Positions 7,064 through 26,398 of a DNA stretch of 64,000 nucleotides are shown piece after piece. Source of the stretch: Synechococcus sp. (GTDB lineage: Bacteria; Cyanobacteriota; Cyanobacteriia; PCC-6307; Cyanobiaceae). The notes beneath the pieces were generated by a model. That model was not told the DNA's origin, did not search any database, and was given only the letters and a program-made list of their open reading frames with translations. The DNA lies in NCBI GenBank assembly GCA_047284725.1, contig JBJBEO010000001.1:128001-192000 (forward strand), given 5' to 3'. Each line of letters starts with the position of its first letter. Within the stretch, counting starts at the first letter, position 1. The position numbers and the translations under genes were made by a program.

Positions 7064-7348
7064 AGTCTTGATTCATCGCCTCTCAGGGTTTTGGGATTGT
7101 TGGGCCCAAAGCGTGAAAAGCCGGTGATCGCTGCCTGAGATGTCGATGAAAGAGCCAGGTCTATGGATTGTTATGACTAAGATCACTAAGAACTAAAGGA
7201 ATTATTGGTAGCCAAGTTTTCACTTGCAAAAATCTCCATTCTGTTGTCAGCGATGCGTTGATTGAGTAATGTAAAAAGTCAAGCATTATTGAAATAGGCT
7301 TCAGTGTTGGCTTGACTGCTCATCCGCAGTGTTAGCGTATTTGTTTGC

Positions 7349-9043: not shown

Positions 9044-9382
9044 TTGCTGGGATGAGGGCTGATGCTGGAGGTTAAGCAGCTTTGAATTGATTGAGTCAAG
9101 AGATCCCTGATGCCGTGGTCTTGGTGGGTCTGATGATTTCAAAACTTTGGCTTCTAGACTGCTGGAAATGCATCACTAGACGCGATTACTAAAATTCTTG
9201 GACATGAGTTTGGCGAGATCAGGTCATGGGTGTTGATAGCTGGCGGCGATTCTGTGCTTGGTCGGCATGCAAACTTGATTGCAGGGGCTTTGGTATTGGC
9301 TGAATGTTGTTGTCGCTTTCGATGTTGCTCGTATTTTTTTCTTGCCTAGTCTTTGGGTGCTGGATTGACTCTTGGTGCTCAA

Positions 9383-10324
9383 ATGGCTGAACATGCATCT
9401 CAGTCGAATGCATTGAATTGTGCGCTAATTGATGGTGTCTTGTTCTCTGACCTGCCTGAGATTCAGCGACTGGTGGGTCAAGGTGCCGATGTTAATGGCT
9501 TTGACGTGAATGGCTTGTCACCCCTTCACTATGCAGCTCAGCAGAACTTTGGTGAGAAGGCCTCATTTTTGCTTGACCATGGTGCCGACCCAAACTCAGT
9601 CACGACAACAAATGAATTGGGGCTGAATGAGTGTTTAACGCCCTTATTGATTGTATCGAGTTCCAGGTTGATTAATGATAAGTTGCCTATGATGTCTCTT
9701 CTGATGGGTCGTGGCGCAGATCCAAATATCCCTGATGTGGATGGGATGGCATCTCTTGCAAAGTTAATTGTCGGTGGCAGTCCAGTTCATGAGCTGGAGT
9801 TTCTTTATTCGAAAGGCGCTGATTTAAGCGCAGCTGATCTCGATGGAAACTCTGCGCTTGTTTATGCCTATGAATCGGGTGATTTTCGCGCCATTGATTT
9901 TCTGCGTGATCATCACGCTTCTGAAGCTGGAGTGCCTGAGTATGAATTGATTTGTTGTGCTGGTCGTGGTGAGCTTGAGAGCGTTATCTCTGCGCTAGGA
10001 AGGGGGGCTAACCCCAATCATGTTTTCAATCATACGGCTCTCTGTGCTGCTGCAGAAGCGGGTTGTTTCGAAGTGGTTCAATGCCTTCTTGCATCAGGAG
10101 CACATCCTGATCTACGACGTCGTGATCAAGAGTTCACGCCTTTGATTGCCGCGGCTTATAACGGTCACCTTGATGTTGTTAGGTCTCTTTTGCAGCATGG
10201 CGCAGATCCCCAGTGTGAAGTTGAGGATATGGGAACTGCTCTTGACTTTGCTCGCCTAGGTCGACAAGAAGGTTTGAATCCAACTGCACCTTGGAAGGAA
10301 ATGATCACGTGCCTCAAAAGCTAA
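9383..10324 (+). CDS. ankyrin repeat protein
   Basis: repeated GADxN...xPLxxAA units, e.g. GADVNGFDVNGLSPLHYAA and TPLIAAAYNGHLDVVRSLLQHGADP. Confidence 0.92.
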   Translation: MAEHASQSNALNCALIDGVLFSDLPEIQRLVGQGADVNGFDVNGLSPLHYAAQQNFGEKASFLLDHGADPNSVTTTNELGLNECLTPLLIVSSSRLINDKLPMMSLLMGRGADPNIPDVDGMASLAKLIVGGSPVHELEFLYSKGADLSAADLDGNSALVYAYESGDFRAIDFLRDHHASEAGVPEYELICCAGRGELESVISALGRGANPNHVFNHTALCAAAEAGCFEVVQCLLASGAHPDLRRRDQEFTPLIAAAYNGHLDVVRSLLQHGADPQCEVEDMGTALDFARLGRQEGLNPTAPWKEMITCLKS

Positions 10325-10824
10325 GGTGTCACTTAGGACCTCAGAGAGAGCTTGTCTCGCTGGTGTTGATGGTATCGGAGAGTTGGTGAAGGCTTGCGAC
10401 TGCGGGTCAGGCTGAGAATCCCAGGCGTGCTTGTTCAGTGTTCTTTCCAGAAAGAAGTTTTCGAAGATGAGTGCGACGATCCAATTTTTCTCCCAGGTTT
10501 GTTGCATCACTCATTTCGCCAACTACCAAGCCTCTCCGCACTGACAAGCGCTCGGAGAGAACTGCGAATTCGAGTGACTGAAGCTGGCATTGACGTGATT
10601 AAATCATGCTGAGAATTGACTTAAAGGCTGCTGAAAGTCGGTGGTTTTTTGGTTTCTTGGGTTCTCGCTGATTCCTTCTGTACCGTGCGTCGTTTAGGGG
10701 ATTGATCGGATCGTCCTGTTGAATGTGGGTCTCAAAACTTTGTGAATAATGCCGTCAAAGATGGCGGCATTGCTGCAGCGCTTGGCGATGCTTGTTTTGT
10801 TGTGATTCCTTCAAACTGAGTGTC

Positions 10825-11658
10825 ATGGGGGTTAACCCTTCAGTGTTTGCAGCGTTTAACGTTGATGCTGTTTCAGCGCTGCTCGTTCCTTTTCTTTTCA
10901 AGTTGCTCGGTGCGGCTGCCCTTTGGATTGTGGGCGGTTGGCTGATTGGCTTGGCGCTCCGTCTTCTTAGGCGTTTCTTCAGGCAGGGCACGCTCGACCC
11001 CACACTGGCGAATTACCTGTTGGGCATCATTGGCGTGGTGCTGCGGGTTGTTCTTGTTGTTGCCATTCTTGGCTTCTTTGGTATTGAGACCACCAGTTTT
11101 GCTGCCCTCCTTGCCGGTGCTGGTATCGCGATCGGTGCGGCCTGGAGTGGGATGCTGGGCAATTTCGCTGCGGGTGTTTTCCTGCAGCTGTTTCGACCAA
11201 TTTCAGTCGGTGATTACATCGAAGGTGGCGGTGTGGAAGGCACCGTGAAGGAGGTGGGCATGTTTGTCACCTCGATCACCTCCCCTGACAATGTGGTGAA
11301 CATCCTCGGTAATGCCAAGCTGTTCGGCGATACCATCAAAAATTACTCAGCGACGCCTTTTCGCCGGGTTGAGCTGGTGGCCCAACTCGACAACAGCGCT
11401 GATGTGGCCAAGGCGATCACCTTGCTGAAGGAGGGGATCAAGACGGTTCCCCATCAAGTCAATGGGCAGGACGCCGACATTGAGGTCCTTGAGTTCAGTG
11501 AGCGGGGGCCACGTCTGGCCGTTCGTCCTTACACCCATACCAGCAACTACTGGCAGGTTTATTTCGACACCAATCGCATGATTGTTGACGTTCTGGGCCA
11601 GGCCGGATTCCCTGTTCCCCGCATCCCTGTGGAGATGCAAAAGAATGGCTTGAACTGA
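10825..11658 (+). CDS. mscS: small-conductance mechanosensitive channel, MscS family
   Basis: TTSFAALLAGAGIAIGAAWSGMLGNFAAG, RPISVGDYI, GTVKEVG, IKNYS. Confidence 0.92.
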   Translation: MGVNPSVFAAFNVDAVSALLVPFLFKLLGAAALWIVGGWLIGLALRLLRRFFRQGTLDPTLANYLLGIIGVVLRVVLVVAILGFFGIETTSFAALLAGAGIAIGAAWSGMLGNFAAGVFLQLFRPISVGDYIEGGGVEGTVKEVGMFVTSITSPDNVVNILGNAKLFGDTIKNYSATPFRRVELVAQLDNSADVAKAITLLKEGIKTVPHQVNGQDADIEVLEFSERGPRLAVRPYTHTSNYWQVYFDTNRMIVDVLGQAGFPVPRIPVEMQKNGLN

Positions 11659-11683
11659 TGGCGCGCTGGGATTGCGTGCCATC
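11657..11683. terminator. hairpin between the convergent mscS and oxygenase genes
   Basis: GATGGCGCGC-N7-GCGTGCCATC, 10-bp stem with one G.U pair, no long U tract. Confidence 0.4.
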
Positions 11684-11744
11684 CCTTAGGCCTTGAATGA
11701 GCGAGAAGCTCAGGCCCATCGGTAGCAGCGTTGGGAGGTCCGTT

Positions 11745-12668
11745 TCAGGGGTTCCCAACGCCTTTGTTGTCGTCGTCATCACGCCGGGAGGCGTTGTTCA
11801 GCCGTTGCAGCAGTGAGGGTGGGCCGAGCTGCTCCAGACGGAACTGTGTCCCGTAGCTGGGTGTGGGGCGCTGGGAGAAAAAGCGTCTGCGTTGGGGAGT
11901 CCAGAAACGGCGAACGGCGCCCAGGAGGAAGCTGCGGCAGTGGAGTGCCAACCGCACGGCCTTGACTTGCCAGGCCGGAGCTTTTGGCCAGTTGAGACTG
12001 CTGAGGGTTTCCGGTTCCAGCAGGCTGCAGACAATGGACCGAAGCCATCGGTGCAAGGGCGCTGGCCAAGCTGCCAGCAGCATTGTGATCGTGGCCTCTG
12101 CAACGCGCTGGTTGCTTTCGGCACAGGCAAAAAGTTGATGATTGGCGCGCTGATTGAGCTCCATTAAGGCCTGCAGACTGCTGGGCCGTTGTTCAATGTT
12201 CATCAGGCTGCCCACATGATCCCAGAACTGGAATAACGCCTCCTGTTCCAGGGGCTGGAGTGCGCGCCAGCCATACCTCTCGATCCAGCGAATCGGCTCA
12301 GCCACGAAGCCGGAGAGCACGTAGGCGTACTCCGCCTGGCCAATGGCGTAGGTGCCATGAATTCGATTCAGTCGTTGGATGACGGCTTTCCCCTGGGGGG
12401 TATCGGGGCCGAGCCGCACCAGTTCCGCCACGATCAAGGCCGTATCGTCGTAACGCTTCCGGGGGCGTTGCTCGAACTCACCGGTTTGATGCAGCAAGCC
12501 TGAGATCGAGGGCAGGCAGAAGGTCTTCAGCAAGGCCAGTTCCAGGGCCCGGTTCATGTCCCATGGGAAGAGCAATCCCACCAGATCACGACACTGCTCC
12601 AGCACGAGGGGATCCAACCCTTGTGCCCTCTGCGTCTCGGAGCTTGGGTCTGATCCAGAAGACGTCAT
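11745..12668 (-). CDS. oxygenase MpaB/Lcp-like (DUF2236) protein
   Basis: ALELALLKTFCLPSISGLL..TGEF...KRYDDT...RLNRIHG...YVLSGF..EPIRWIERYGWR. Confidence 0.82.
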   Translation of the reverse strand: MTSSGSDPSSETQRAQGLDPLVLEQCRDLVGLLFPWDMNRALELALLKTFCLPSISGLLHQTGEFEQRPRKRYDDTALIVAELVRLGPDTPQGKAVIQRLNRIHGTYAIGQAEYAYVLSGFVAEPIRWIERYGWRALQPLEQEALFQFWDHVGSLMNIEQRPSSLQALMELNQRANHQLFACAESNQRVAEATITMLLAAWPAPLHRWLRSIVCSLLEPETLSSLNWPKAPAWQVKAVRLALHCRSFLLGAVRRFWTPQRRRFFSQRPTPSYGTQFRLEQLGPPSLLQRLNNASRRDDDDNKGVGNP

Positions 12669-13144
12669 GGCAGTGATGGTCGCTGAAGGGTGTTGGGTCT
12701 GTCCCAGGTCTGGGCTTTCAAGCTCTCCAAAAGGAAGTCGACCCGTGGATCTCAAATCGATCGCATACAAGCAAAGGTACTTAATTAAATGTCGTTATCT
12801 ATGGATGGCTGGTCTTCTTATTCCATGTGGACCTGAGAGAAGAAAGTCGGTGTTGAGATTCGCGATCTAGATATCTTGATGGCCAGGAAGTCTTTGCATG
12901 CACATTTGTTTATTTTTACTTGGGTTGGTACGCGATGAGCCAATGCCTGCAGATACGACGACTTCATCCGCAGACGCTGTGAAATTGGTTCTCATTCTTG
13001 TTTTTTTGGGGCTCTCAACCCCTGCCCTGAGCATGAATTCATTGCATTGATGCACTGCTCTTGCAGTCAGTTTGTAGCGTTTTGTTGCTAATCTGCGCCA
13101 GAGCGCGGCTTTTTCTACCATTAAAAAAGAAGAATATCCTTTCA

Positions 13145-13777
13145 ATGCCTTTGGGTGATATCGCAGGTAAGTCATCGGCTTTGACGGTGATCACTCCTCT
13201 GTGGTGCTCTTGGATTAACCGCTTTTTGTTTGCTTTATATCGTTCTCTTCCCGCTCAATTCTTCCCACTGGTCAATCTTAAAATGATCCATTTCGCGAGA
13301 TGGGTTATTCTGCCAAAAGATCGGTGGCCAGGGCGTTCTAGGGATTTTAAGACACGCTATTCATACCTTTTATTTGCCTCCAATTTCAATGGTACTTGGG
13401 ATGTTTATCTCGATGAGTTTTCAGATGTGATTTCATTGGGAATGGACACAATGTGGTATCGCAGCATCGGCTATCCAAAGTCCATACCTAGCTCTCCATT
13501 CAAAGCTTATATCGACGACAACTCAATCGAGTGCTCTTACTATTATAATTCTCTTCCTGGATTTTCTCTTAGAGATGTCGCGAGTGCATTAAAAGTGCGT
13601 AAAGCGGTTGGCTGTTTGGAGGCTCATTTGTCTGCGCTTGATCAGGATAACCAGCTATCTGAATCTGCAAAAGATGACTTATTCTTTGAAAAATTTCAGG
13701 CTGTAATGGCTAATTTGGCCAACCATTTCCCATCGACAGGTAAGCCACCTCTGCATTCACACGATATTTCTTGTTAA
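13145..13777 (+). CDS. uncharacterised DyP-cluster protein A (HFAR motif)
   Basis: LTVITP...IHFARWVI...YLLFASNFNGTWDVYLDEF...YYYN; first gene of the operon. Confidence 0.75.
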   Translation: MPLGDIAGKSSALTVITPLWCSWINRFLFALYRSLPAQFFPLVNLKMIHFARWVILPKDRWPGRSRDFKTRYSYLLFASNFNGTWDVYLDEFSDVISLGMDTMWYRSIGYPKSIPSSPFKAYIDDNSIECSYYYNSLPGFSLRDVASALKVRKAVGCLEAHLSALDQDNQLSESAKDDLFFEKFQAVMANLANHFPSTGKPPLHSHDISC

Positions 13778-13817
13778 GGCTTGTCAACTCGCTCAATCTT
13801 TAACGGATAAGATTTAT

Positions 13818-14990
13818 ATGCCCAGTAATGAAGCGGGATTCTACCAGTTAACGGCTCTGTTGCCGATCAAAGCGGGCACTTACTCAAGTTTATTGGGCGA
13901 GAATAATGCTTCTAATGCATTTGAAAGCACCCGCTCATATGTTCATCATCTGAAAGCTTACCTGAACAAATTGTCAGATTCATACTTGCAAGAGATTGAT
14001 GATAATCCTTCGGGCCCAAGTATTCCTCATTTATTTGATCATACGAGCCGCACTCATTTTGCAAGATTTGTTGTGATTGATCAGCTTTTCTACAATGGAA
14101 GGCGTCGGAATGATTCCCTTGTGGATTTTGTCAGATTGATGCTAAACAAAGATGTGCTTTCGAGAAAAGACAGGATTGACCAGTTGCACTCTTCTTATCT
14201 TCTTGTAGCTATTGACTTTGACTGCAGTCATGGTTCGACCACTTGCGTGCAAGATTATTTGTCGGAGCTATGGCCTTATGCTCAAGATGAATTGACTGAG
14301 ATCTTTTGGCACTGTGAGGGATTCGCATTGCCATCGCCTTTTAATGATCAATTCTGTCAAACATATGCCAACGATTGGTATCTTTATCAAGTCGTAGAAC
14401 GACTAATCTTGTCTCATGAGGTTGAGACAACTTACCCATTTTCTGCATACTTTTGGGCCGCCGAAAATGTGCGTCGATGGAATCCGTTGACAGATCAAGT
14501 TTCACCTTCTCGATTCCGCAATCGATGGGGATTGATTCTCGTAGGCACTCTACCCTTAATACTTATTTCTCTGGCACTGCTTATTCTACCTTTTTACATG
14601 GGCAGCTTCTTTTTTAATCTGTTGTATCAAGCAGCATTCCCAGATATAGACTTAAGTAATTTCTATTCAGCTTGGAATCAATGGGGGCTCATTGGCTTTT
14701 GCCTTTCCATTGCCTCTTTAATCTTGTTTATGTTTGCTTGGCGATATTTTGTTTCCAGTGCGAATCAATCTCTTGATCCAATAAATGGTGTCGACTTGAA
14801 ATCGATCTTGAAATCTCTTTACATTCAGTCTGAGCTCTTTAATATGTATAAAATATGGCAGGAACATGATCGCTTTGATCGATCCAGTTTACGTAAACGA
14901 TTTGCAAGGTTTCTCGACAAGACGAAACCCTCAGACATACATGCTCCCTCTTTGAAGCCTGGCAAATACTTTTCCACTTTCCCTGAATGA
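13818..14990 (+). CDS. uncharacterised DyP-cluster protein B (HFAR motif, two TM segments)
   Basis: LTALLPI...THFARFVVIDQLFYNGR...YLLVAIDFD; two hydrophobic stretches near the C-terminus; ATGA overlap with the next gene. Confidence 0.78.
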   Translation: MPSNEAGFYQLTALLPIKAGTYSSLLGENNASNAFESTRSYVHHLKAYLNKLSDSYLQEIDDNPSGPSIPHLFDHTSRTHFARFVVIDQLFYNGRRRNDSLVDFVRLMLNKDVLSRKDRIDQLHSSYLLVAIDFDCSHGSTTCVQDYLSELWPYAQDELTEIFWHCEGFALPSPFNDQFCQTYANDWYLYQVVERLILSHEVETTYPFSAYFWAAENVRRWNPLTDQVSPSRFRNRWGLILVGTLPLILISLALLILPFYMGSFFFNLLYQAAFPDIDLSNFYSAWNQWGLIGFCLSIASLILFMFAWRYFVSSANQSLDPINGVDLKSILKSLYIQSELFNMYKIWQEHDRFDRSSLRKRFARFLDKTKPSDIHAPSLKPGKYFSTFPE

Positions 14991-16903
14991 TCATGGCTAC
15001 AACTTTTGACCGGCTTGATATTCAGGGAAATATTCTTTTGCCCTATGGACGTTCTTCTTATCCGATTGCTCGTCATTTTATTTTTCATAGTAGTGATAAG
15101 ACGAAAGCTCAAAGATTTTTACACTTAATTCTGCCTTCAATCACTACAGCTCAGTTTTTTCCCTCGAAACGTTCTGTTCAGATGCAGATTCCTGCTGAGC
15201 AAATGAGGAAGGACAATCCAGATGTCCTGCTGAATATTGCCTTTACGGCACCGGGGCTTAGGGCTTTTGGTGTTCCAGAATCAGCTCTTCGCCAGTTTCC
15301 AGATGCTTTTCTAGATGGAATGTGGAATAGATCGGAATTATTAAATGACAATCGATCAGACTGGAATCATGCTTGGAAGGATGATGAAGAGGTAAATATT
15401 ACTCATTTGATGGTTAGCTTGCGTGTTGCCTTCAATCCTTGTTTGAAAGAAGTCTGTTCAGCTAGACATGATACCTATTCAAAGTCTGATTATCATCGTC
15501 AAGAGACGTTTCGGCTGGCACGATCCAGAATGATTCAGCATCTGGATCGCGAAACGAACCACTTGCTGAATCAGACAGAGCAGCATGGTTTAGTTGCTCT
15601 CACAGGTCATTCCACTATGAATCCCAATACTAAATGGCTTGAGTGTGAATCACTTTGCCATTCCAGGCTTCAAGATCTTGCTATCGCTGGGCTAAGTGAC
15701 GAACAATGCGAGGTTCAACTAAATCAGCAAATTGATTTGGGCTATGTTTCTTCATCGGCAAAGCTTACCGATCTCCGCTATAGCGAATATGAGCATTTCG
15801 GATTTTTTGATGGTATTGGTGATCCTGTCTTTGATGGTCAATATCCATCTTCTTTTCAGGATGAAATGGCTCAGGGGCAAGGCCACCTCTCACGCGGGAA
15901 GTGGAGACCGATTGCACCTGGAGAATTTTTATTGGGTTATCCCAATGAGGCACAGGAGACTACATGCCATCCCATGCCTTATTCGTTTAGTAGAAATGGA
16001 ACCTTCATGGCTGTACGTAAACTAGATCAGAATGTTTCTGCCTTTCATAAGGCTTTGGAGAAGCAGACTCCGTTGTTGGATCACTGGCTTGATGAGTATC
16101 AAGACATCAGTTCACCGGATCAAATTGCCATCCCTAAGCATCTCCCCAAAGCGTTAAAATTACTTCGTGCCAAATTGGTTGGGCGTTGGGATGATGGCAC
16201 GCCGTTGGTGCATGCACCGACGTATGAATCCTGGCTTAGCTTTCGTGAACGTCTACTGACATTGGCTGGAGAAGCCAGAAAAGGTGGATCAATGGCGAAA
16301 GAAGCTTGGCAAGAATTTAAGACCAAGTTTACACTTTTCACTTTTGAGTCTGATGATGATAAGGGGATCAAGTGTCCATTTGCTTCACACATTCGTCGCA
16401 GCAATCCTCGAGACAGTGGTGATCCATCGGTTCGCAACGATGCCGACCGGTCAGAAAGGTCTCAAGCAAGTTCTTTGCTGGTGAATCGACGTCGAATTTT
16501 AAGGCGTGGTATGACCTATGGGCCACCACCGGATTTACAGCAAAATGTTGCTAGCGGAAATCACGAACCTCCTTCGAGCGAAAAAGAAAAAGGTACTTTC
16601 TTTGTTGGAATTTGCTCTGATCTAGCTAGGCAATTTGAGTTCATGCAGCAACAATGGTTGAACTATGGATCTGATTTTAATTTAGGTAATGATATTTGTC
16701 CGATTGCCGGAGCACTCCATCCTTCTTTGGACAGTCATCTGTCCAGTTCCAAGGTTTTGATGACATCAGAGAGGCGCGATGGAACGCTCACGCCTCCCTT
16801 CGTTGTCAGTCCATCATCGAGGCCAGTGGTGTGTCGCGGTGGAGCTTATTTCTTCGTCCCTAGCCTTTCGGCTATCCGTTTATTAGCTGACAATCGCTTC
16901 TAA
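14987..16903 (+). CDS. DyP-type (dye-decolorizing) heme peroxidase
   Basis: DIQGNIL, EHFGFFDGIGDP (GxxDG), NGTFMAVRKLDQNV, SHIRRSNPRD (proximal His), ILRRGMTYG (distal Arg), QFEFMQQQW, GGAYFFVPS. Confidence 0.93.
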   Translation: MIMATTFDRLDIQGNILLPYGRSSYPIARHFIFHSSDKTKAQRFLHLILPSITTAQFFPSKRSVQMQIPAEQMRKDNPDVLLNIAFTAPGLRAFGVPESALRQFPDAFLDGMWNRSELLNDNRSDWNHAWKDDEEVNITHLMVSLRVAFNPCLKEVCSARHDTYSKSDYHRQETFRLARSRMIQHLDRETNHLLNQTEQHGLVALTGHSTMNPNTKWLECESLCHSRLQDLAIAGLSDEQCEVQLNQQIDLGYVSSSAKLTDLRYSEYEHFGFFDGIGDPVFDGQYPSSFQDEMAQGQGHLSRGKWRPIAPGEFLLGYPNEAQETTCHPMPYSFSRNGTFMAVRKLDQNVSAFHKALEKQTPLLDHWLDEYQDISSPDQIAIPKHLPKALKLLRAKLVGRWDDGTPLVHAPTYESWLSFRERLLTLAGEARKGGSMAKEAWQEFKTKFTLFTFESDDDKGIKCPFASHIRRSNPRDSGDPSVRNDADRSERSQASSLLVNRRRILRRGMTYGPPPDLQQNVASGNHEPPSSEKEKGTFFVGICSDLARQFEFMQQQWLNYGSDFNLGNDICPIAGALHPSLDSHLSSSKVLMTSERRDGTLTPPFVVSPSSRPVVCRGGAYFFVPSLSAIRLLADNRF

Positions 16904-16919
16904 ACAACATTACCAACTA

Positions 16920-18800
16920 ATGATCATGATTATTCCATCTTTTTTGACGCCATTCTGCAGCATATTTTTCTTCCCGGCATCGTCAGTTGTTCTTGCTACT
17001 GCTAATTTGACTGAACAAAGCTTTCGTTCATATCTTGAGTCTTTTGGTCTGTTGATTGAGTCTTTTGTTCATGCGTTGTTGTCTCGCATTGAATTGCTTC
17101 TGCTGGCTGTTGTTCTTTTATATTTTTTCATGCGTTTCGCGCGTATTCTGTTTTTGTATTTTCTTCAACTAATTGAAACGACCGTTAGGGTAACTCACTT
17201 ATTTGGTGATGTCTTTGCAGCGCTATGTTGGGTTAACCCTCGTTATCGAATTAATCGTGCTTACGGCTATCAAGCAAATGCGATCTCTTCCCTTGTCTCT
17301 ATATCTTTACGTCTGGCGAAGGAAATCTTGCTTCTGCCTTTTGATTGGATGCGTTCACTCGGTCTTGCCTCGATTTTTGGGCCAGATTCAGTCACTGATA
17401 GTAAGCACTATTTAAGTAAGGCGTTCTACCCCTCTTTGCTGCAACGATTGACCATCATAAAACATCGGCACGTCACTATTTATTTTTACTTATCGTTCGT
17501 TCGCTTGTTTGTCCATCGCTTGACTGTGCCTTCGTGGTTTCCTGGCATCAGGATCAAGGAACTGAGTCATGGCGACCAATTCCCTGTGAAGCGTCACCTT
17601 CACCTTTTAAAGCGTCATGATGTCGAAGAAGTCTTGGAGCGCTCTGAGGACTTTCATGTTGTCTATGGCCCGAGAATGTGCGATATCACTCAAAATGGGC
17701 ATCCGTCTGGAAATTTCCTTCTTGGCATGCAGGCCTTATCTCCAACCTACACACGTGATATTTCTAATATGCGATTAATCTTTCGCCGTGATGATGTTGG
17801 TAGATGTCACTCCATTGCCTCCACTGCATCTGTTGACAGTTTTCTTGCCTTTGATATCCGAGCAGATGTCCCCCTCGATCTTGATGGGGCCAAAGTTCTG
17901 AGTTTACCGAAGGATCTTGTTTTACCTGTTATCAAAACGTTTGTTGAAGAGTATTTTGGCATTCGCCTTCCACTCCAAGCGCTAAATGTCGACGGAACGA
18001 CTGCAGTTGACTACAATCTTTTATGGTTTTCGCATCTTTTCCATTATATCTTTTACGATCTCAATGGTGACGATAGTAGAAGCATTGCGCTTGCATCTGC
18101 AGCTTTGTTTAATCAAGACCTAGATCAACAGATTGCTAGTGCGAAACAACAATTAAGCGAGCCTTTGGAGCATGTCGATACTGTGTTGTCTCGATGTATC
18201 AGACTTCAGCAATCTGGTACTCCTGGAATGGATAATCTTGCGATTCGGATTAATTTGACGGGATTTCTTGTGGGGGCAGTATTGCCGCTGATCAACACGA
18301 TTTGCCAGGTTGTCGATCAGTTGTTGTCTCGACCTCGTATTCTTCAAAAAGCCACACGCGCTGCGGATCAATCCGACCTTGTTTTGTTACAGGGATTTGT
18401 ATCCGAAGCTCTTCGTTTTGCACCGGGTGATCCTGTGATATATCGCCATTGTCGCAAGAAGGTAAAGTTAGTTAATGGGCCATTTCATTCTGCCATACCT
18501 GCCAATACCTTGGTGATGGCATGGAATTCCTCTGCAATGTTCGATCCAAAATATGTTGATAAGCCCTGGCAATTCAATCCCGCTAGACCTGCTAGAGACT
18601 ATTTGCACTTTGGTCATATGCATCATGTCTGTGCAGGTAAATATATTGTGATGTCTGTAATACCAGCGGTGCTTCGTGAATTATTGGTCCGCTATGACTT
18701 GTCTAGGGTCCCAGGTACGTGCGGTTATCCTTCAAAACATGGAATCACGGTTTCAGAATTTGATGTCCTAGTACGTCCTAGGCTCTGTTCTGATGAATGA
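16920..18800 (+). CDS. cytochrome P450 with a long hydrophobic N-terminal extension
   Basis: EALR (ExxR), PWQFNPAR (meander), HFGHMHHVCAG (heme Cys pocket). Confidence 0.88.
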   Translation: MIMIIPSFLTPFCSIFFFPASSVVLATANLTEQSFRSYLESFGLLIESFVHALLSRIELLLLAVVLLYFFMRFARILFLYFLQLIETTVRVTHLFGDVFAALCWVNPRYRINRAYGYQANAISSLVSISLRLAKEILLLPFDWMRSLGLASIFGPDSVTDSKHYLSKAFYPSLLQRLTIIKHRHVTIYFYLSFVRLFVHRLTVPSWFPGIRIKELSHGDQFPVKRHLHLLKRHDVEEVLERSEDFHVVYGPRMCDITQNGHPSGNFLLGMQALSPTYTRDISNMRLIFRRDDVGRCHSIASTASVDSFLAFDIRADVPLDLDGAKVLSLPKDLVLPVIKTFVEEYFGIRLPLQALNVDGTTAVDYNLLWFSHLFHYIFYDLNGDDSRSIALASAALFNQDLDQQIASAKQQLSEPLEHVDTVLSRCIRLQQSGTPGMDNLAIRINLTGFLVGAVLPLINTICQVVDQLLSRPRILQKATRAADQSDLVLLQGFVSEALRFAPGDPVIYRHCRKKVKLVNGPFHSAIPANTLVMAWNSSAMFDPKYVDKPWQFNPARPARDYLHFGHMHHVCAGKYIVMSVIPAVLRELLVRYDLSRVPGTCGYPSKHGITVSEFDVLVRPRLCSDE

Positions 18801-18824
18801 AAGACGTCTCTTCATTGTTTAACG

Positions 18825-20636
18825 ATGACTAACTCAGATCACCCGATAAGCGATTTGTCAGTCGATCATCTGCCTATTCGTTCTGATGTGGTCGATCTGC
18901 TCAGGCGTGCTGGCGTAGAGTTCTTTCGATTTCCATTGTCTCCTGAGGGAGATGAAATGGAGGAGTATTTTAAGTCTGATGATTATATTCATTGTCATTT
19001 CACTGAGGAAGCAGTCGCTGAAACTGGATCCGCAATTCATCTACTTGAAGCCTTCCTAAGAGATGTTCATCCAGAAGACCGTGAGTACATGAGAAGTGTG
19101 GCCAAGCAATTATTGGATAGTGATGGTTTTGGTAAAGACATTACAAGTCGTCCATTTCGTGGTGTGTCTCATGATGGACGTTGGTCTTGGTATGAAGTGC
19201 GCATGAATGTTCGCCCTCAAAAGGACCTTTTGATTTGCGAAGGACTGATGCTGAACGTGGATCTACAGCAAGAGTCGTTGATGACTTTGCAGACCAGTCT
19301 TTATCGCGATCAATTGACAGGTCTTGGAAACTTGAAGAGTGCTTATCCCCTGTTAAATGCATTCATTGCTAAAAGCTTGCCTTTTGCGCTTGTCTGGCTC
19401 GATTTGAAGGGCTTTGGGCGGCTCAATACCTATCTCGGTCGCACAACAGGTGATGAGATTCTTCGTGCTACGGCGTTTGCCTTGAAGAGTTGGATCCAAG
19501 ATGGTGATCATTTAATCAGACCTGATTCGGATGAATTTCTTGTCGTATTAAGTGGTCGAGATTCTAAGGCTGCTTACTCTGCTGCTCTTCACCTTTTGGA
19601 TGCCTTACCATCATTATTAGACTCGGGTGGCAACGCTTATTATCGTCTTGGATTTCATGCCGGGATAAGTTCATATCCAGAGCATGGCGAAGACGAGGAT
19701 TCAATTCTGTCGACTGCAGCCTCTGCACTGGATCAGGCCAGACGAATCAATTCTGCCACTGAGTCAGTGGTTGTATTCGGTGATGACATCACATCAAGAA
19801 CGGCTGAATTATTAAACCTTGAAATCAGCCTACGCCAGGCTGTTGAAAAAAATGAATTTAGGCTTCTTTATCAACCACAATGGAATATATCCGGCCAGAT
19901 TATTGGTGCTGAGGCACTATTGCGTTGGAAGAGTGTAAGTCTTGGCCCTGTTGGGCCTGGCATTTTTATACCTCTTTCTGAGCAAACTGGTCAAATTCAT
20001 CAGATTGGAGAGTGGGTTGTTGAAAACGCTTGTCGAGCACTCTCGACCCTGAAAGCGCGTATGAATAATCCTCCAACTCTTTCCATTAACATCTCAGCAA
20101 GTCAACTTTCTTCGCGCCAACATGATGTCTTGACGTGTTTGTTGCGAAATCTGCACCGCTTTCAGGTATCACCTAATCAATTGCATGTTGAGATCACCGA
20201 GTCTGGATTTTTAGATGACTTGGCGATTCGCCGTCTGAAGGGTTTGTACGACGCTGGCATTTGTCTACATATCGATGATTTTGGAACTGGCTTCGCCAGC
20301 CTTTCTAGCCTGTTATCGATTCCCATTCATTCGCTCAAGTTAGATCAGAGCTTTGTCGCTAAGTTGCATTCAACTGAGCCCGACAGTTTGGCAATCGTTT
20401 CTCCTGTCAAGCCATCTATCGCTATTTTGAAGGCTAGTCTTGCTCTTTCAACATCCATTGGTTCTCAAGCAATTGTTGAGGGGGTCGAAACAAAGGAACA
20501 GTTCGCCACTCTCTGTGATATGGGTTATCAAATTTTCCAAGGATACTATTTCTCTAAACCTCTTGAATTTGATGAGTACTGTAGTCTTTTGGATGATCAA
20601 GCATCCAAAGCAGATTTATTTTCATTAGCATCATAG
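18825..20636 (+). CDS. PAS-like/degenerate GGDEF/EAL c-di-GMP phosphodiesterase
   Basis: DQLTGLGN, PDSDEF in place of GGDEF; EALLRW, EITE, DDFGTG, LKLD, EGVET, FQGYYFSKP. Confidence 0.9.
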   Translation: MTNSDHPISDLSVDHLPIRSDVVDLLRRAGVEFFRFPLSPEGDEMEEYFKSDDYIHCHFTEEAVAETGSAIHLLEAFLRDVHPEDREYMRSVAKQLLDSDGFGKDITSRPFRGVSHDGRWSWYEVRMNVRPQKDLLICEGLMLNVDLQQESLMTLQTSLYRDQLTGLGNLKSAYPLLNAFIAKSLPFALVWLDLKGFGRLNTYLGRTTGDEILRATAFALKSWIQDGDHLIRPDSDEFLVVLSGRDSKAAYSAALHLLDALPSLLDSGGNAYYRLGFHAGISSYPEHGEDEDSILSTAASALDQARRINSATESVVVFGDDITSRTAELLNLEISLRQAVEKNEFRLLYQPQWNISGQIIGAEALLRWKSVSLGPVGPGIFIPLSEQTGQIHQIGEWVVENACRALSTLKARMNNPPTLSINISASQLSSRQHDVLTCLLRNLHRFQVSPNQLHVEITESGFLDDLAIRRLKGLYDAGICLHIDDFGTGFASLSSLLSIPIHSLKLDQSFVAKLHSTEPDSLAIVSPVKPSIAILKASLALSTSIGSQAIVEGVETKEQFATLCDMGYQIFQGYYFSKPLEFDEYCSLLDDQASKADLFSLAS

Positions 20637-20896
20637 CTTTTGATCGAATTTTCTGAGATGCAGTGAGGATGCCTGCGCTACTTTGCTAATTTTTTGGAGG
20701 CAATGTGTGCTAATTAGTCTGCTTTGCTACAGCTGGCTGAAATTTAGCGCACTTTTTCTTGTGATGATTATTGGCAAAGGCCTACTGGAAAGTATCTCGC
20801 CTGTAATCAAGTCTTTGACAGGTTGGCCTTGCAACAGTTCGGTTGGGATGAAAAGGGCCCCTCCGGCTATTTAGATGTCGCTTGCCACTATGCTTG

Positions 20897-21496
20897 TTAT
20901 GAGTTCAGTTTCTTTTCGCCTTCCCCCGCCCGTACATTCTCTTGAAATGGATCGTAGTGATCGCCTATTTGAGCAAAGTTGGCCATGATGCAGTCCTTAT
21001 GAGCTTGATCAATAGGAATGCCATTCCCTTGGTGGATGTTATAAATATTTGGCAAACTGTTCTGGCATTTTTGCTTGCCACGTGAGTCTTGATTGCACGG
21101 TTTCGGCATCGTGCAAGTTGCAAGCCCACTCGCATAGATCCAATCAACTTCTCTCGTGTCGATGCATGAATGAAGTTTCACCATTCTTTGACATTGATGG
21201 CAATTGTCTTCAAAATTTTTTGCTTTCTTCGATAAGCGTTGAAGCATTCTTGCCATGGCATCCGAGCTGTACGACTTTCCCATGGAGGTGCAGATTGAGT
21301 GTGCGTACTCTCGGAATTCATTCCACTGAGTCGACCTAAGAAAACTTGCCGGTAGGAATGGGCTAGAAGGTATGGATCTAATAGTTGATTTCCTATGACG
21401 GCATCGACAATGTGTTGCAATGGCTTTAGGGGGCATCAGTCTGAGTGGTTTCAAGCGGCGCCTTGTTCTGGCAGGGTGAGATGTATAGGCCTCCAT
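20897..21496 (-). CDS. hypothetical Cys-rich ORF (doubtful)
   Basis: 199-codon open frame in AT-rich DNA; no recognisable motif. Confidence 0.3.
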   Translation of the reverse strand: MEAYTSHPARTRRRLKPLRLMPPKAIATHCRCRHRKSTIRSIPSSPFLPASFLRSTQWNEFREYAHSICTSMGKSYSSDAMARMLQRLSKKAKNFEDNCHQCQRMVKLHSCIDTREVDWIYASGLATCTMPKPCNQDSRGKQKCQNSLPNIYNIHQGNGIPIDQAHKDCIMANFAQIGDHYDPFQENVRAGEGEKKLNS

Positions 21497-21512
21497 GACA
21501 ATGACTTGGTAT

Positions 21513-22292
21513 TCATGGAGATTCGAGAATGGTTAGCGCCCGAAAAGTCAACAGCTTTGCCGGTTTGCCCTTTTTACCTTCGCTAGAAATCAGTAGGTCT
21601 CCGGATGGCAGAAAGGCAATGCCTTCAGGTTGGATCAATTGATCCTTGTTCAACGTCAGCGCTTCTTTGAAATCGCCGCTCAGCCCATAGCAGACGATCA
21701 TTTTTTTGCCTTTGGAACCAATGATGTAGAGATCTTCCGATTGAGGGTGCAGCGCAAGGCCGGACGGGTTGAAGTCGTCTTCTGAGCCATCCAGAAAGGT
21801 ACGACTGTCGATGGTGAGTACCGGCAAAGACTTCATCTGCATAGTTTGCAGGTCAAAGGCATAGATGTTTCGTGTGGGGTCGTTCTTGTTCGGCGACCCT
21901 TTGCAGGCGATCAACAGGCGATGTCTTTGGGCGTCATGGCACAAGCCTTCCGGGTCGTGTTTTTTCTGTAGTCCTAAGTCGTAACGTTGAACCTTGGCGT
22001 CTTTGCCTTGGAACCCCGTCACGCTGAAAATGGCTGGCTGCTTGCCTGCCTTCAGGAGATAAGCGGTCGTTCCAGCAATGGCAATGTCTTCTGAATCGCC
22101 ATCATCATGCTTGGCAAGTTTAGTGATTGTTCCGGTATTCAAGTCAAGGAGATGGGTCTGAACGGTCTCATCCTGAACAAACGCAACTCTGCCGTTGTCC
22201 TCCACTGGTGAGATCCCTGAAATTTCCTTGTACTGATCTGGCAGGGTATAGCTCTTCAATGGATGGCTAAAGTCATAGGGGAAACAGCTCAT
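21513..22292 (-). CDS. SdiA-regulated (YjiK-like) beta-propeller protein
   Basis: EISGI, VQDE, DSEDIA, PEGLC, FNPSGLALHP, QPEGIAF, LLISSEG blade motifs. Confidence 0.8.
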   Translation of the reverse strand: MSCFPYDFSHPLKSYTLPDQYKEISGISPVEDNGRVAFVQDETVQTHLLDLNTGTITKLAKHDDGDSEDIAIAGTTAYLLKAGKQPAIFSVTGFQGKDAKVQRYDLGLQKKHDPEGLCHDAQRHRLLIACKGSPNKNDPTRNIYAFDLQTMQMKSLPVLTIDSRTFLDGSEDDFNPSGLALHPQSEDLYIIGSKGKKMIVCYGLSGDFKEALTLNKDQLIQPEGIAFLPSGDLLISSEGKKGKPAKLLTFRALTILESP

Positions 22293-22465
22293 GTCACTCG
22301 TTTCGCTGCAACGGAGGGGATGAGGTGATTGGAGCAACGATCCCGAGATGGAGACACACCATTGCGGCGAACAGTCACCCTTGATTGCAATATCTGCCCC
22401 GCGCTAATGGCGTCCATCGCCTACCTCGCCGCATCAGCATCAGAGGCGGAACTGTCCTGCTCCCC

Positions 22466-23341
22466 TCAGTTAGGACCGTTTCCTTCCGGTGGACCGTAAA
22501 ACCCCACTAACGCTTTGAGCTCCTCGAAACAGAGCATCAGCTCGGGGGTGCGGCCAGCCTGAAGCTCCACCAGGGCTTGGCGCATGGCGAAAGCGGCCGT
22601 GGAGAGCAGGGTGAGCGGATAGGCGACCAGGTCGAAGCCCATCTCCTGCAAACGCTCCGGCGTGAGCAAGGGGGTGATGCCCCCCTCGAGCATGTTCGCC
22701 ATGTGCAGCCCCGGTACCTCCTGGCAGAACCTCAGCATCTCCGCCTCGCTGCGGGGGGCCTCCAGAAACAACACCTCCGCCCCCAGTTCCGCGAACGCCT
22801 TCAATCGCCAGAGCGCTTCCTTCAGGGCAGCCTCCGGCCCCAGGCTTGCCTCCATCGCCGAGCGGGCATCCGTCCGCGCCACGATCACCAGATCGGCGCC
22901 CTGATCGCGCGCATCAATGGCCGCTTGAATCCTGGCGATTGCCGTGTCGCGATCCACCACCTCCTTCACGCGGGTGTGGCCGCAGCGTTTCGGGGCCACC
23001 TGGTCTTCCAGCATGATCCCGGCGAACCCGGCCTTGGCGAACTGCTGCATCGTGCGCCGCACGTTGGCGGCATTGCCGTGGCCCGTATCGCCATCACCAA
23101 TCACGGGGATCGACACGGCATCGCAGATCGATCGGCCCTGATCGAGCATCTCCGTCACCGTGAGCAGGCCGGTGTCCGGCAGTCCAGCGCGGGCAGCCGC
23201 CACCGAGAAGCCGCTCATGAAGGTGAGCGGGCATCCCGCCTGCTCCACCAGCCGGGCCGAGAGGGCATCAAAGCAGCAGGGCGTCACCAGGCAGGTGCTG
23301 TCCTGAAGGAGGCTACGCAGTCTCGCTGCAGGGCTCTGCAT
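22466..23341 (-). CDS. isocitrate lyase/PEP mutase family enzyme
   Basis: DALSARL, DGDTGHG, EDQVAPKRCGH, ARTDAR, ANMLEGG. Confidence 0.9.
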   Translation of the reverse strand: MQSPAARLRSLLQDSTCLVTPCCFDALSARLVEQAGCPLTFMSGFSVAAARAGLPDTGLLTVTEMLDQGRSICDAVSIPVIGDGDTGHGNAANVRRTMQQFAKAGFAGIMLEDQVAPKRCGHTRVKEVVDRDTAIARIQAAIDARDQGADLVIVARTDARSAMEASLGPEAALKEALWRLKAFAELGAEVLFLEAPRSEAEMLRFCQEVPGLHMANMLEGGITPLLTPERLQEMGFDLVAYPLTLLSTAAFAMRQALVELQAGRTPELMLCFEELKALVGFYGPPEGNGPN

Positions 23342-23497
23342 CGTCGTTTCCTCGATGGTGAAGAGTGTTCAGTTCGGGCCGCCGCATGGCTGCCTCAAGG
23401 CTTGTGTTGCTGTCTTCGAACGATCGGCCGACGCAGTTGTTTGGTAGTCATAACGGTCAGGAATCGTTGTCGTTGATCGAGCGTCAAGCATGGGAGG

Positions 23498-24547
23498 TCA
23501 AGTCTGCTCCTTGCTGATTTGACTTCCTGGAAATTCGATGGGCTGGCCCGTGCTCGCATCAATGCGATCCAGGGATGCTCCGTGATATTGGTTGAGCAGA
23601 AGCTTCACCACATGCTCTCCATATTGTTGATACCAAAAATCTCCCATTTTTCTCAACTTGATGATGTTGTCGGGGCTGACGAGATCCATTGCATTGTCGG
23701 GTACGTCGGTTTCCGTCAGTCCTCGCTGGGCTTTGATCTCCGAGTCCACGCGGATGTAGTTACCTGGCTCGGCAATAGTGATGGCCTGATAAGCCACGAC
23801 ATGCTCGTCGCTCAGCACCTCTAGAAGCTTCCCCTTGAAAAACCAGTCGAGGAACCCCCATTTTTGTGATTGTTTGCCGTTGATTTTTTCTGTGCGATGG
23901 CCTGTGCCAACTGAAACAACTCTCAGCTCGCTTATGGGCATTCCCCACGCCCGCTTTGCTTCGGCAATCGCGCACATTGTTGGATTGTTTGCGGTCACTC
24001 CCCCGTCGACCAGCCATTGGTTTTTGCCGTTGTCCGGGTTTTGTAGCTCGTTTGTTGGGAAAAAGGTTGGTGCTGCGCTCGACGCGTCTGCTACCCGATA
24101 AGCATCTAGATTGAGATATTTTTCTTTCGTTGATTTAATTACTCTGGGCCTTCTGTCTTCCAGGGAGTAGGTCAAGGCAAGTACGTGCTTGTCGTCCGGG
24201 ACTGCGCCAATACTGCTGCTTCCAAGGTAGGAGCTGAGGACACTTGTTTTTCCTGCTCCTTTGTATTTTGGGCTGAACAGCCTGCTGGTAAATCTGCGCT
24301 TGGAAAAAATGTTTTTCGCATTTTTGTGGCTGTAGAGCTCGTCGATTTCTTTGGCTGAAAGGTCTGTTGTGGCAAGCGCAATCGCAATGATGCTGCCAGT
24401 GCTCGTACCTGCGTAAAAATCAATGCAGTCTCTTAGCGACTTGCTGTGGTGCGTGAGTAGATCGTCCTCTACTCGCCTAAGGAACCGAGCAGATGCTGCG
24501 CCTCTGATGCCGCCTCCATCCAGTGACAATATCAATTTGCCCGACAT
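23498..24547 (-). CDS. patatin-like phospholipase
   Basis: DGGGIRG oxyanion motif, GTSTG nucleophile, SAAPTFF, DGG catalytic Asp. Confidence 0.93.
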   Translation of the reverse strand: MSGKLILSLDGGGIRGAASARFLRRVEDDLLTHHSKSLRDCIDFYAGTSTGSIIAIALATTDLSAKEIDELYSHKNAKNIFSKRRFTSRLFSPKYKGAGKTSVLSSYLGSSSIGAVPDDKHVLALTYSLEDRRPRVIKSTKEKYLNLDAYRVADASSAAPTFFPTNELQNPDNGKNQWLVDGGVTANNPTMCAIAEAKRAWGMPISELRVVSVGTGHRTEKINGKQSQKWGFLDWFFKGKLLEVLSDEHVVAYQAITIAEPGNYIRVDSEIKAQRGLTETDVPDNAMDLVSPDNIIKLRKMGDFWYQQYGEHVVKLLLNQYHGASLDRIDASTGQPIEFPGSQISKEQT

Positions 24548-24721
24548 TTGCGCGAGTGAAGCAGATGGCTTTATGTCTAATCATGTTGTTTTGTTTTTGC
24601 CCTAATCCGCAAAAATATTAATTTTGCTATCTGCTTTCTTCCGGAAGCTATGGTCGCAGTTCTGCGTGGGGCTGCATTGTTTTTGGTGTTGATCTGATTC
24701 CTGTTTGTGGTGGATTTGCCG

Positions 24722-26398
24722 TCATGACGAGCAGCTGTAGTGCGCGATGCCACCGGCATGGAACAGCTCCCGTGGCCGCAGCTGGCAGTACTTGGCCTGA
24801 ATCGCCTCAGACGGGGTGGCGTAGGGGTTGCTGAACACCGCTTGCAGCTCCTGGATCAGCGCCGTCTCCCCCCCCTCCGCCTGTTGATAGGCGGGGGCGA
24901 TCAGCCACTCCCGCCAGGCGATCGCCGGGTTCACCGTTTGCATGGCGGCCGCAACCGCGTCGTGGGCGTCGCTGTCGCCGAGCTGGTGGCGCCATTGCGT
25001 TAGCCATGTCTCCCACTGTTGATCGAGTGCCTCGGAGCTCGGCACGTAAAAGCTCTCTTGCACAGGTTCCAGCGATGCAGGGAGGGTCGACAGCGCCCGG
25101 AAGCAGAGCGTGTAGTCGGCCCGTGATTGCGCCATCAGCGCCAGCAGCTCCCGCACCAGGGCGGGGTCGGGCTGGCTGAGGCCCAGCTTGCGGGCCCACA
25201 TCCCATCCAGTGTCTCCTCCATCACAGTCGCAAAATCCTTGCGGATCTGGTCGAGCTGCTCCAGGGCCGCCGGGTCCCCCACCAGCAGCGGCCTGAGGGC
25301 GCTCCAGAGCATCTGGAAATTGGCTTCCGCCGCCGCCGGTTGATTGAAGAAGCAGAAGTGCTCGCCGCCGCCGGTCCAGGGCTGGAAGCGGGGATCAAAC
25401 AGTTCGCAGAACCCGAAGGGTCCGTAATCGAGGGTGTAGCCACCGGCGGCGCAGTTGTCGCTGTTGAAGTTGCCCTGGCAGTAGCCGACCCGCATCCACT
25501 CGGCCACCAGGTGGGTGAGGCGTTGGCGGAACTGGCGCGCCAGCTCCACCACCTGCTCCGCGAAGGGCAGGGCCGGATCAATCGCCTCGCGGTAGTTGCG
25601 ATCGATCAGATGGGCCGTGATCAGCTCCAGTTCCTTCAGGGCCTGGGGATGGGCCTCGCTCCGGGCCCGGCGGGCGAACAACTCCAGCTGGCCCACCCGC
25701 AGGAACGACGGCGCCACCCGGGTGGTGATCGCAGCGGCGTTGTCGACCATCACATCGGGATCGAGCGATCGCGACTGCTCCGAATACCAGGGGCGCAGCA
25801 CCCGTTCTCGCTGCGATCGATAGAGCGTCAGCGAGCGGGAGGTGGGCACCCCCAGGGCATGCATGAACTCCTGGGCCAGAAACTCGCGCACGCTGGAGCG
25901 CAGCACCGCCCGGCCATCGGCTCCCCGGCAATACGGGGTCGGGCCACCGCCCTTCAGCTGCATCTCCCAGCGCTGGCCTGCAAACACCCCTTCGAACACC
26001 GAGAGGGCGCGGCCATCGCCATAGCCGTTGCCGGTGCCGAAGGGGCACTGGCGGATGTATTCCGTGCCGTAGATCGAGAGGGCGTAGCCCGTGGCCCAGC
26101 CGTAGGCCGGCATCGCTCCGGTGGCAACGCTGGCATCACCGGAGAACCAGCGCTGGAAGGTGGCGTCGTGGGCGAGCGCGTCGCTCAGCCCCAGCTCCCG
26201 GAACAGGCTGCTGCTGTGGGCCACGTATGCCGGCTCCGGCAGCGGCGTGGGGGTCACGGGCACGTAATGGCCGGAGAGCACCTCCCGCGCCCGGTGGTCA
26301 TGGCCATCGCTGGTGGCGTCCGGATCCCGGTTCAGCGCCTGCAGCAGGGAATAGTCCGCGTGCTTTGCAAATGCCGGGAACGTGGCGGTGGCGGGCAT
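24722..26398 (-). CDS. selO: protein adenylyltransferase SelO (YdiU/UPF0061)
   Basis: [45 protein letters not shown]-terminal SCSS. Confidence 0.92.

Follow-up and report, generated by a model that had tools for sequence, protein, structure and literature searches.

We analysed a window of 64,000 nucleotides from a contig of Synechococcus sp. (the window is the whole stretch of DNA, and all coordinates are positions in it). Here we describe five co-oriented reading frames on its (+) strand, which encode two proteins termed A and B, a class V dye-decolorizing peroxidase (DyP), a cytochrome P450 and a PAS-GGDEF-EAL protein (Table 1). Consecutive genes are spaced by 40, -4 (an ATGA overlap), 16 and 24 nt, in full agreement with the arrangement that had been proposed in a sequence-only reading of this DNA. 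An in-frame TTG lies upstream of the A start at 13061, yet alignments of homologues begin around the ATG. No ferredoxin or reductase gene lies within the five-gene unit. From comparative analysis, the first four genes almost certainly constitute one functional module that is widespread among bacteria, with attachment of the EAL gene limited to one picocyanobacterial lineage.

Table 1. Genes of the five-gene unit, with positions in the 64,000-nt window.
Gene	Position	Strand	Product
Protein A	13145..13777	+	210 aa counted from ATG; soluble; probable ferredoxin-like (ABM-type) domain and helical hairpin; no hydrophobic segment
Protein B	13818..14990	+	390 aa; apparent paralogue of A; carries a hydrophobic insertion of two helices
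Class V (C/D-type) DyP	14987..16903	+	638 aa; Pfam DyP_N, Dyp_perox_C
Cytochrome P450, probably CYP1851A	16920..18800	+	626 aa; Pfam p450
PAS-GGDEF-EAL (gene 5)	18825..20636	+	603 aa; Pfam PAS_3 (below cut-off), GGDEF, EAL

A profile search with A identified 532 genome stretches that encode a relative, the best 80 of which were fetched and counted, including only those loci with enough downstream sequence. Within this set B follows A in 78/78 loci, DyP is present in 74/74 and a P450 of the same family in 56/68, three of these being on the opposite strand. A second, more distant profile was used to examine 80 of 386 metagenome loci, where DyP was found in 56/57 and the P450 in 20/37; B is short there (~210 aa). 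The sole locus with room where A-B has no DyP is L087 (3090-6290), in which a flavin amine oxidoreductase gene is divergent. As these best-match sets are biased, genomes were additionally drawn evenly, with at most six candidates scored per genome. Hits were obtained in 3/301 genomes from the phylum of the window (its own genome included), 17/301 from the phylum of genome G621 and 11/301 from the class of genome G623; in the G621 sample, neighbours such as a TonB-dependent receptor are suggestive of Gram-negative bacteria. Leaving out the centre genomes and one short-contig hit, 29 regions from 28 evenly drawn genomes were available, and DyP is adjacent or fused in 28 of them; the 29th stops at a contig edge.

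Moreover, the components occur as single polypeptides. Open reading frames (ORFs) of 1408-1620 aa with the order P450-B-A-DyP are found in plasmid records of Pararhizobium, Novosphingobium aromaticivorans (SARO_RS19865) and Sulfitobacter (L192, L194, L277) as well as in four sampled genomes (L251, L252, L254, L255). A search of representative proteins returned 2091 at E 0.001, many with the domain in duplicate. When 46 longer proteins were scanned, two proved to be A-B-DyP fusions, one an nSTAND1-A fusion and two had a weak catalase match after A-B, with three more similar by eye. Named plasmid records widen the range to Acidobacteriota, Deinococcota and Actinomycetota, and no relatives of A were found among the viral contigs searched. 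Apart from a glutathione S-transferase (GST)-like gene at 15 loci, neighbour clustering identified no further gene conserved across loci. The sequence-only reading had pointed to hypothetical-hypothetical-DyP-P450 units in proteobacteria with no assigned function. The four-gene unit is indeed conserved there and beyond, the co-occurrence that was anticipated is borne out by the neighbourhood counts, and no published description of the module was found in the literature searched, which leaves most subscription journals uncovered.

Variant arrangements were also observed. In the same family as the window, L178 (4828-9497) has a module of another type, which comprises a P450 of unrelated kind, an unknown gene of 173 aa, a fused B-A and a DyP; by eye, the 173-aa gene resembles a small gene between a GMC oxidoreductase and B-A in L271. 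In the Erythrobacter loci L066, L078 and L083 the P450 belongs to the fusion-type branch; its gene is on the opposite strand and comes behind a cyclase-AAA gene, and a Crp gene is found upstream of A.

Neither A nor B belongs to a Pfam family, A also has no NCBIfam or PADLOC family, and in the ESM Atlas both match unnamed clusters only. Pairwise BLAST of the window A against B returned nothing (best E 3.4), whereas profile-profile comparison of A alignments with a short-B alignment gave 99.6-99.8%. Profiles are thus needed to see a kinship that pairwise BLAST misses. A and B are paralogues, both of them barrel domains of the ABM type. The fold was tested on a natural A-B fusion, P0157, and not on the window proteins; the model of the window A alone reached a pLDDT of 68 and gave weak matches at best, with nothing from Foldseek at E 0.001 and every Z below 8. 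P0157 (pLDDT 91.8, pTM 0.91) is predicted to form two ferredoxin-like domains with a helical hairpin behind each, a tandem ABM-type alpha+beta barrel. Its best fold match is WhiE-ORFI (Z 14.7, root-mean-square deviation 4.2, 225 aligned, with unrelated rows at Z ~6), and further matches include the Abx(+)O decarboxylase (Z 11.4), an anthrone oxidase-like protein (Z 7.4), two putative monooxygenases, a sulfur oxygenase reductase and, weakly, HmoB (Z 4.9). On this model B probably forms the A-B barrel together with A. A shared fold by itself indicates no function.

Conservation within the pair is more informative about the likely pocket. In A, Arg52, Trp53, Ser79-Asn80-Phe81-Asn82, Trp85, Tyr88 and Trp104 are invariant in 156/156 homologues, whilst His49 of the HFAR motif is present in 135/156 and is Glu or Gln in 20/156. 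In B, Arg83 is kept in 153/153 and Cys166 in 142/149; the HFAR His occurs in 141/153, with Tyr in the other 12/153. We rejected this His as a haem ligand as it is invariant in neither protein. An invariant Arg, accompanied in A by Trp, Asn and Tyr, next to a variable His would fit a substrate pocket better. The same variability makes the His a poor axial ligand for what we consider a very improbable role of the module, namely haem or tetrapyrrole synthesis, loading or breakdown, as in other members of the dimeric alpha+beta barrel superfamily. HmoB is among the weak fold matches and the Escherichia coli DyP YfeX is reportedly a porphyrinogen oxidase; hemA adjoins one distant copy and a TonB receptor, Fur and katG adjoin another, each a single case, and a P450 or catalase-like third enzyme would have no obvious part in such a pathway. 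Complex prediction of A, B and DyP from L140 scored 0.88, compared to 0.69 for a control with B replaced, and was not used as evidence either way.

The window DyP exceeds the Pfam cut-off for both DyP_N and Dyp_perox_C, and 20/20 matches in the PDB are class V DyPs. It retains Asp275 of GxxDG (272-276), the proximal His468 (467-471) and the distal RRxLRRG (502-508). By its fold domains and motifs it is a class V DyP with its catalytic residues kept. The closest solved structure is DrDyP (8re2/8re3, E 7e-27), whose gene in Deinococcus radiodurans (DR_A0145) shares a locus with genes for a 3-hydroxyacyl-CoA dehydrogenase, an A-like protein (independent E-value 1.8e-16 against the A-B profile) and a catalase-family protein (DR_A0146). 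Passages of PMC10820274 report no activity of purified DrDyP towards H2O2 at neutral pH, speculate on partner proteins and state the physiological substrates of DyPs as an open question. DR_A0146 is reported to be without catalase activity in a passage of a review (PMC6300522). The A-like neighbour of DrDyP is not mentioned in these passages of either source.

The window P450 scores 48 bits against Pfam p450 (cut-off 22.8), with EALR at 496-499 as its ExxR motif and Cys572. When the P450 family profile is aligned to EryK to set the I-helix register, Leu455-Pro456 occupy the acid-alcohol positions, and the canonical pair of P450s that use O2 and NAD(P)H is absent. The P450 had been called atypical in the sequence-only reading, and at this pair it is so. 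Within the wider family the acid position is Pro in 43/46 members and the Thr is kept in 42/46. All of the 11 other complete EAL-linked P450s resemble the window copy in having Pro in place of this Thr; picocyanobacterial P450s without the EAL gene retain Pro-Thr (5/5). The CYP74 clan, which includes allene oxide synthases and hydroperoxide lyases, is marked by a nine-residue insertion in the Cys loop, and the Cys loop of the window P450 aligns to ordinary P450s without an insertion. CYP152 peroxygenases have Arg-Pro at the acid-alcohol positions (in a passage of PMC5818669). They resemble the window P450 in lacking the pair and in having Pro at the alcohol position (Pro456 here), but their Pro is preceded by a carboxylate-binding Arg where the window P450 has Leu, which places it outside CYP152.

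P450 subfamilies are delimited at 55% identity to named members; the closest copies that we fetched are 63-69% identical. CYP1851A2 and CYP1851A3 of two marine Synechococcus strains are named in the supplement of PMC7014017 and not in its main text, and neither a function nor a gene context was found for them. Judged by eye, their I-helix, K-helix and Cys-loop motifs nearly equal those of the window P450 and they share its hydrophobic extension at the N terminus; named homologues of A and B come from the same two strains. From these motifs the window P450 is probably a CYP1851A. Hydropathy indicates hydrophobic segments in B (236-270 and 288-313) and in the P450 (~1-30 and 44-85), and none in A, DyP or the fifth protein. 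The membrane association proposed earlier on such grounds may hold for the copy described here but does not extend to the module at large, where many B proteins are short (~210 aa) without the hairpin and most P450s (~450 aa) have no N-terminal extension.

The position of the P450 can be taken by another enzyme. A catalase-related protein follows DyP in 5/29 sampled regions and in three plasmid loci; a fourth plasmid locus has the order DyP, A-like gene, catalase-related protein. As judged from sequence, the third haem slot is filled either by a P450 without the proton-relay acid or by a catalase-related protein. For one of the latter, coral allene oxide synthase was the only solved-structure match, and a weak one (E 0.0035). 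The His of the RDAHAK motif, which we take to be the distal His, is present in the catalase-related proteins of L259 and L276 and is Asn in those of L256 (9833-11029), L271 (10445-11626) and L253 (4847-6118).

A different use for these parts would be the tailoring or degradation of an aromatic or phenolic compound, with A-B as a cofactor-free oxygenase, cyclase or decarboxylase, DyP producing radicals or quinones and the P450 acting as a normal or coupling monooxygenase fed by host ferredoxin. The resemblance of the A-B fusion to WhiE-ORFI, Abx(+)O and the anthrone oxidase-like protein argues for this, although fold identity is just 7-12%. Moreover, DyPs oxidise phenolics and dyes (a passage of PMC10820274), the GST-like gene lies beside the module at its 15 loci, and the commonest sub-threshold NCBIfam match of the P450 family is a cyclodipeptide-associated P450 model (45/46). 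However, the neighbour clusters contain no conserved gene for a polyketide synthase, nonribosomal peptide synthetase, transporter or ring-cleavage enzyme, and a peroxide substrate would account more readily for the replacement of the P450 by a catalase-related protein. We consider an aromatic substrate unlikely, whilst giving it more weight than any other rival.

The key residues of an EAL phosphodiesterase are the Glu of EAL, Asn, Glu, Asp-Asp, Lys, Glu and Gln. These are present in the fifth protein at 363, 422, 456, 484-485, 505, 552 and 572, and the EAL, N, E, DDFG, K, E and Q motifs are retained in all 10 full-length cassette-linked orthologues. The GGDEF motif is degenerate (PDSDEF in the window, and PNSDEF, PSSDEF, PSADEF, PGDDEF or PSDDEV in the orthologues), which sets these proteins apart from diguanylate cyclases. 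The fifth protein is a probable cyclic di-GMP (c-di-GMP) phosphodiesterase. Among the loci examined, a PAS-GGDEF-EAL gene lies behind the P450 only in those of picocyanobacterial type; one such locus, L004, is recorded as 'uncultured proteobacterium' and groups with marine picocyanobacterial copies. The earlier inclusion of this gene in the system thus stands for one picocyanobacterial clade, where it is a conserved fifth gene, but it is not part of the core, as no locus outside the picocyanobacteria has it in that position. The genome of the window has ~20 GGDEF/EAL matches, so c-di-GMP genes are not unusual there. We judge it fairly likely that the link between the EAL gene and the module is functional. 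A second GGDEF-EAL gene (7349-9043, +) sits in the same low-GC island; a homologue of it (69% identical) is directly upstream of the cassette in L175, and none was seen near the cassette in L084 or L085.

In other genomes the module repeatedly has signalling neighbours of other kinds. By raw count, class III cyclase proteins are found in 7/29 sampled regions and beside L192, L066, L078 and L083, and Crp, STAND and caspase genes also recur. These could be read as a peroxide or redox sensor-relay in which the haem proteins, through protein contact or a short-lived product, report oxidant status to the adjoining nucleotide-signalling enzyme, with little product accumulating. The cyclases and the nSTAND1-A fusion are consistent with such a relay, as are the EAL-linked P450s, which have neither the acid nor the alcohol, and the poor activity of DrDyP and DR_A0146 alone (passages of PMC10820274 and PMC6300522). 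Against this, the majority of copies have no adjacent signalling gene, and a sensor would not need three components, haem proteins or barrels, whose catalytic residues are conserved. A pure relay is improbable in our view, and more so than an aromatic substrate.

The five genes have a GC content of 0.41-0.45 and a third-position GC (GC3) of 0.37-0.41, whereas GC3 is 0.74-0.86 in six flanking ORFs that are GC-rich, and the genome as a whole has a GC of 0.594. They lie in a low-GC stretch from ~7000 to 25000 of the window that starts right behind the arginyl-tRNA synthetase gene. The three closest whole-genome copies are likewise near argS, with a GC of 0.41-0.46; of the more distant EAL-linked copies, five have a GC of 0.62-0.71 and two of 0.47-0.57. 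Comparison with three close copies shows purifying selection on all five genes (dN 0.09-0.29, with dS 1.2-2.2 or saturated). For 92 DyP rows, a quick IQ-TREE analysis (SH-aLRT only, midpoint root) places 19 picocyanobacterial-type DyPs in one group (100) amid proteobacterial rows, with the 12 EAL-linked DyPs in one subgroup (95). The genes had been called AT-rich and clearly foreign; their low GC and GC3 hold, but foreign was an overstatement because the nearest relatives are all picocyanobacterial, and we rejected a recent foreign import given that the picocyanobacterial copies group together in the tree. On these comparisons the unit is rather an old, patchy, island-borne picocyanobacterial cassette, long resident and probably acquired once, with the EAL link made in one event and retained across 43-73% protein divergence.

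The distribution within the family of the window is sparse. A was matched in 8/301 genomes and the sensor domain of gene 5 in 8/301, apparently in the same draw. Both matched at E < 1e-50 in six genomes, one of which has a broken cassette over two contigs; gene 5 is missing from two further genomes that carry A, and a distant homologue of it (37-38%) occurs in two genomes that lack A. The system had been thought unexpected in a picocyanobacterium. That view did not survive, since the module, though patchy, forms a clade of its own there and GGDEF/EAL proteins are numerous in the genome. A decaying copy is seen in genome G178 (L177 6706-12094, and L184), where the DyP match breaks off at residue 505 and a gene with a caspase domain comes next, with P450 remnants and an intact EAL gene on another contig. 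In L084 (5255-5365) and L085 (5984-6073) a short fragment of the isocitrate-lyase/PEP-mutase family lies just past the cassette, with the whole gene on the other side; it may mark a point of island insertion or rearrangement.

Scans for promoters (20 vs 16.2 +/- 4.4) and terminators (11 vs 8.2 +/- 2.8) were at chance level, no tRNA was found in the window and no Rfam match in 7000-25000. Two weak expression runs yielded just ten short pieces, which are probably DNA. A search for anti-phage defence returned 0 PADLOC families for 7 proteins at E 0.001. Neighbouring genes include one with an MpaB/Lcp-type oxygenase domain (11745-12770, -), divergent from the cassette, and a low-GC patatin-like phospholipase gene (23498-24547, -) whose best NCBIfam match is a CBASS lipase model at 172 bits (cut-off 200). 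Three other island genes each have one match in the genome: an ankyrin-repeat protein gene (9353-10324, +), a 199-aa ORF without a family (20897-21496, -) and a gene for an SdiA-regulated-domain protein (21513-22337, -). We do not count the patatin, Lcp/MpaB-like and SdiA-regulated genes among the parts of the module: they had 0 matches in loci L004-L085, and in 16 picocyanobacterial loci the sole match was to the Lcp-like gene, which lies beside the cassette, behind MscS, in one of them.

We tentatively favour a reading in which A, B, DyP and the P450 carry out the peroxide-driven oxidation of a hydrophobic carboxylic acid, for which a fatty acid or its hydroperoxide is the likeliest candidate; our confidence in this reading falls slightly short of even, and it ranks above aromatic tailoring, a sensor-relay and tetrapyrrole handling, in that order. 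In this scheme the A-B barrel would be an obligate partner of DyP, binding the substrate through its invariant Arg, Asn, Trp and Tyr and switching on or directing the peroxidase. DyP with A-B would make or activate a hydroperoxide, which the P450 would convert without NAD(P)H in the manner of hydroperoxide isomerases and lyases. In the picocyanobacterial clade, B and the P450 may keep the reaction at the membrane, and the co-inherited PAS-EAL protein would sense the product or peroxide state and lower c-di-GMP. The strongest clue lies in the third slot, which is occupied by an acid-less P450 or by a catalase-related protein; these are the two types of enzyme known to transform fatty acid hydroperoxides with no need of a reductase. 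No ferredoxin or ferredoxin-reductase family was found among 106 + 80 neighbouring ORFs scanned, many of which were wrong-frame picks. Scattered lipid neighbours include patatin (L268, L064), an LCAT-like protein (L269), MAPEG (L273) and GMC oxidoreductases (L253, L271, L060). The linkage counts, the fusions, the inactivity of DrDyP alone and the recurrent signalling neighbours also speak for the favoured reading.

Several points weigh against lipid oxidation. The absence of redox partners is soft because so many of the scanned ORFs were in the wrong frame, and abundant cyanobacterial ferredoxin could serve the P450 in trans. The lipid neighbours are sporadic and stand as raw observations, and the unit contains no gene for a lipoxygenase or cyclooxygenase-type dioxygenase. 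The best 60 of 410 solved-structure matches to the P450 profile are of ordinary bacterial type, none being labelled CYP74 or CYP152. Moreover, the Thr is kept in those 42/46 members of the wider family, and EryK, a normal hydroxylase, also has no acid in the alignment. Of the catalase-related proteins, the match to allene oxide synthase is weak, as given above, and the Deinococcus protein has no solved-structure match at E 0.01. The closest folds to A-B are polyketide-tailoring proteins. Lastly, the EAL link and the Pro shift amount to a single evolutionary event in one clade and not many independent ones; seven picocyanobacterial copies have no EAL gene, and the two distant homologues of gene 5 are in genomes without A.

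A bolder form of the lipid reading, which we regard as doubtful, is that DyP with A-B represents a fatty acid dioxygenase or peroxygenase of a new kind, in which a class V DyP works only together with its barrel subunit. It would feed a partner-free P450 or a catalase-related enzyme to give a bacterial oxylipin-like signal, which in picocyanobacteria would be read by the dedicated PAS-EAL protein. If true, abundant plankton would have evolved an oxylipin pathway independently and coupled it to c-di-GMP; this would explain the apparent inactivity of such DyPs when purified alone and would be categorically new. One large group of class V DyPs is hardly ever encoded apart from its barrel partner, which has no family name, and a second haem enzyme of the peroxide type frequently stands beside these DyPs or is fused to them. 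The module is therefore a testable lead on the cellular role of class V DyPs. It also places the orphan P450 family CYP1851 and DR_A0146, the catalase-like protein described as 'inactive', in a gene context. In the picocyanobacterial version the active site of the P450 is remodelled and a phosphodiesterase gene has become fixed, the latter being the clearest candidate output of the module.

Among known systems, the tandem barrels of the ABM/SchA-CurD type (WhiE-ORFI, Abx(+)O and sulfur oxygenase reductase) share the tandem ferredoxin-like architecture of A-B, and WhiE-ORFI is also the top match by sequence profile, at a non-significant E of 0.27. A-B differs from these in its 7-12% identity, the extra hairpin in each domain, the lack of a Pfam match and the strict linkage to DyP. 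The DrDyP/DR_A0146 locus is a distant version of the module, in which the A-like gene, the DyP and the catalase-related gene follow one another behind the 3-hydroxyacyl-CoA dehydrogenase gene. It differs in having a single A-like gene for A and B, a catalase-like protein and not a P450 as third enzyme, and no EAL gene. A peroxidase-type haem enzyme is joined to a P450 or catalase-related partner in the fungal Ppo/linoleate diol synthases and in the cyanobacterial or coral pairs of a dioxygenase with a catalase-related hydroperoxide lyase or allene oxide synthase. Oomycete CYP5619 is a P450-peroxidase fusion (a passage of PMC5018878). These systems follow the same pairing logic as the module, but begin with a peroxidase-cyclooxygenase or lipoxygenase and have no A-B barrel, whereas the module has DyP with A-B. 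By Pfam, none of the five proteins contains an animal haem peroxidase (peroxidase-cyclooxygenase) domain, which separates them from Ppo and CYP5619. The reading that we favour is thus a known logic, that of a peroxidase plus a hydroperoxide-converting enzyme, assembled from different parts.

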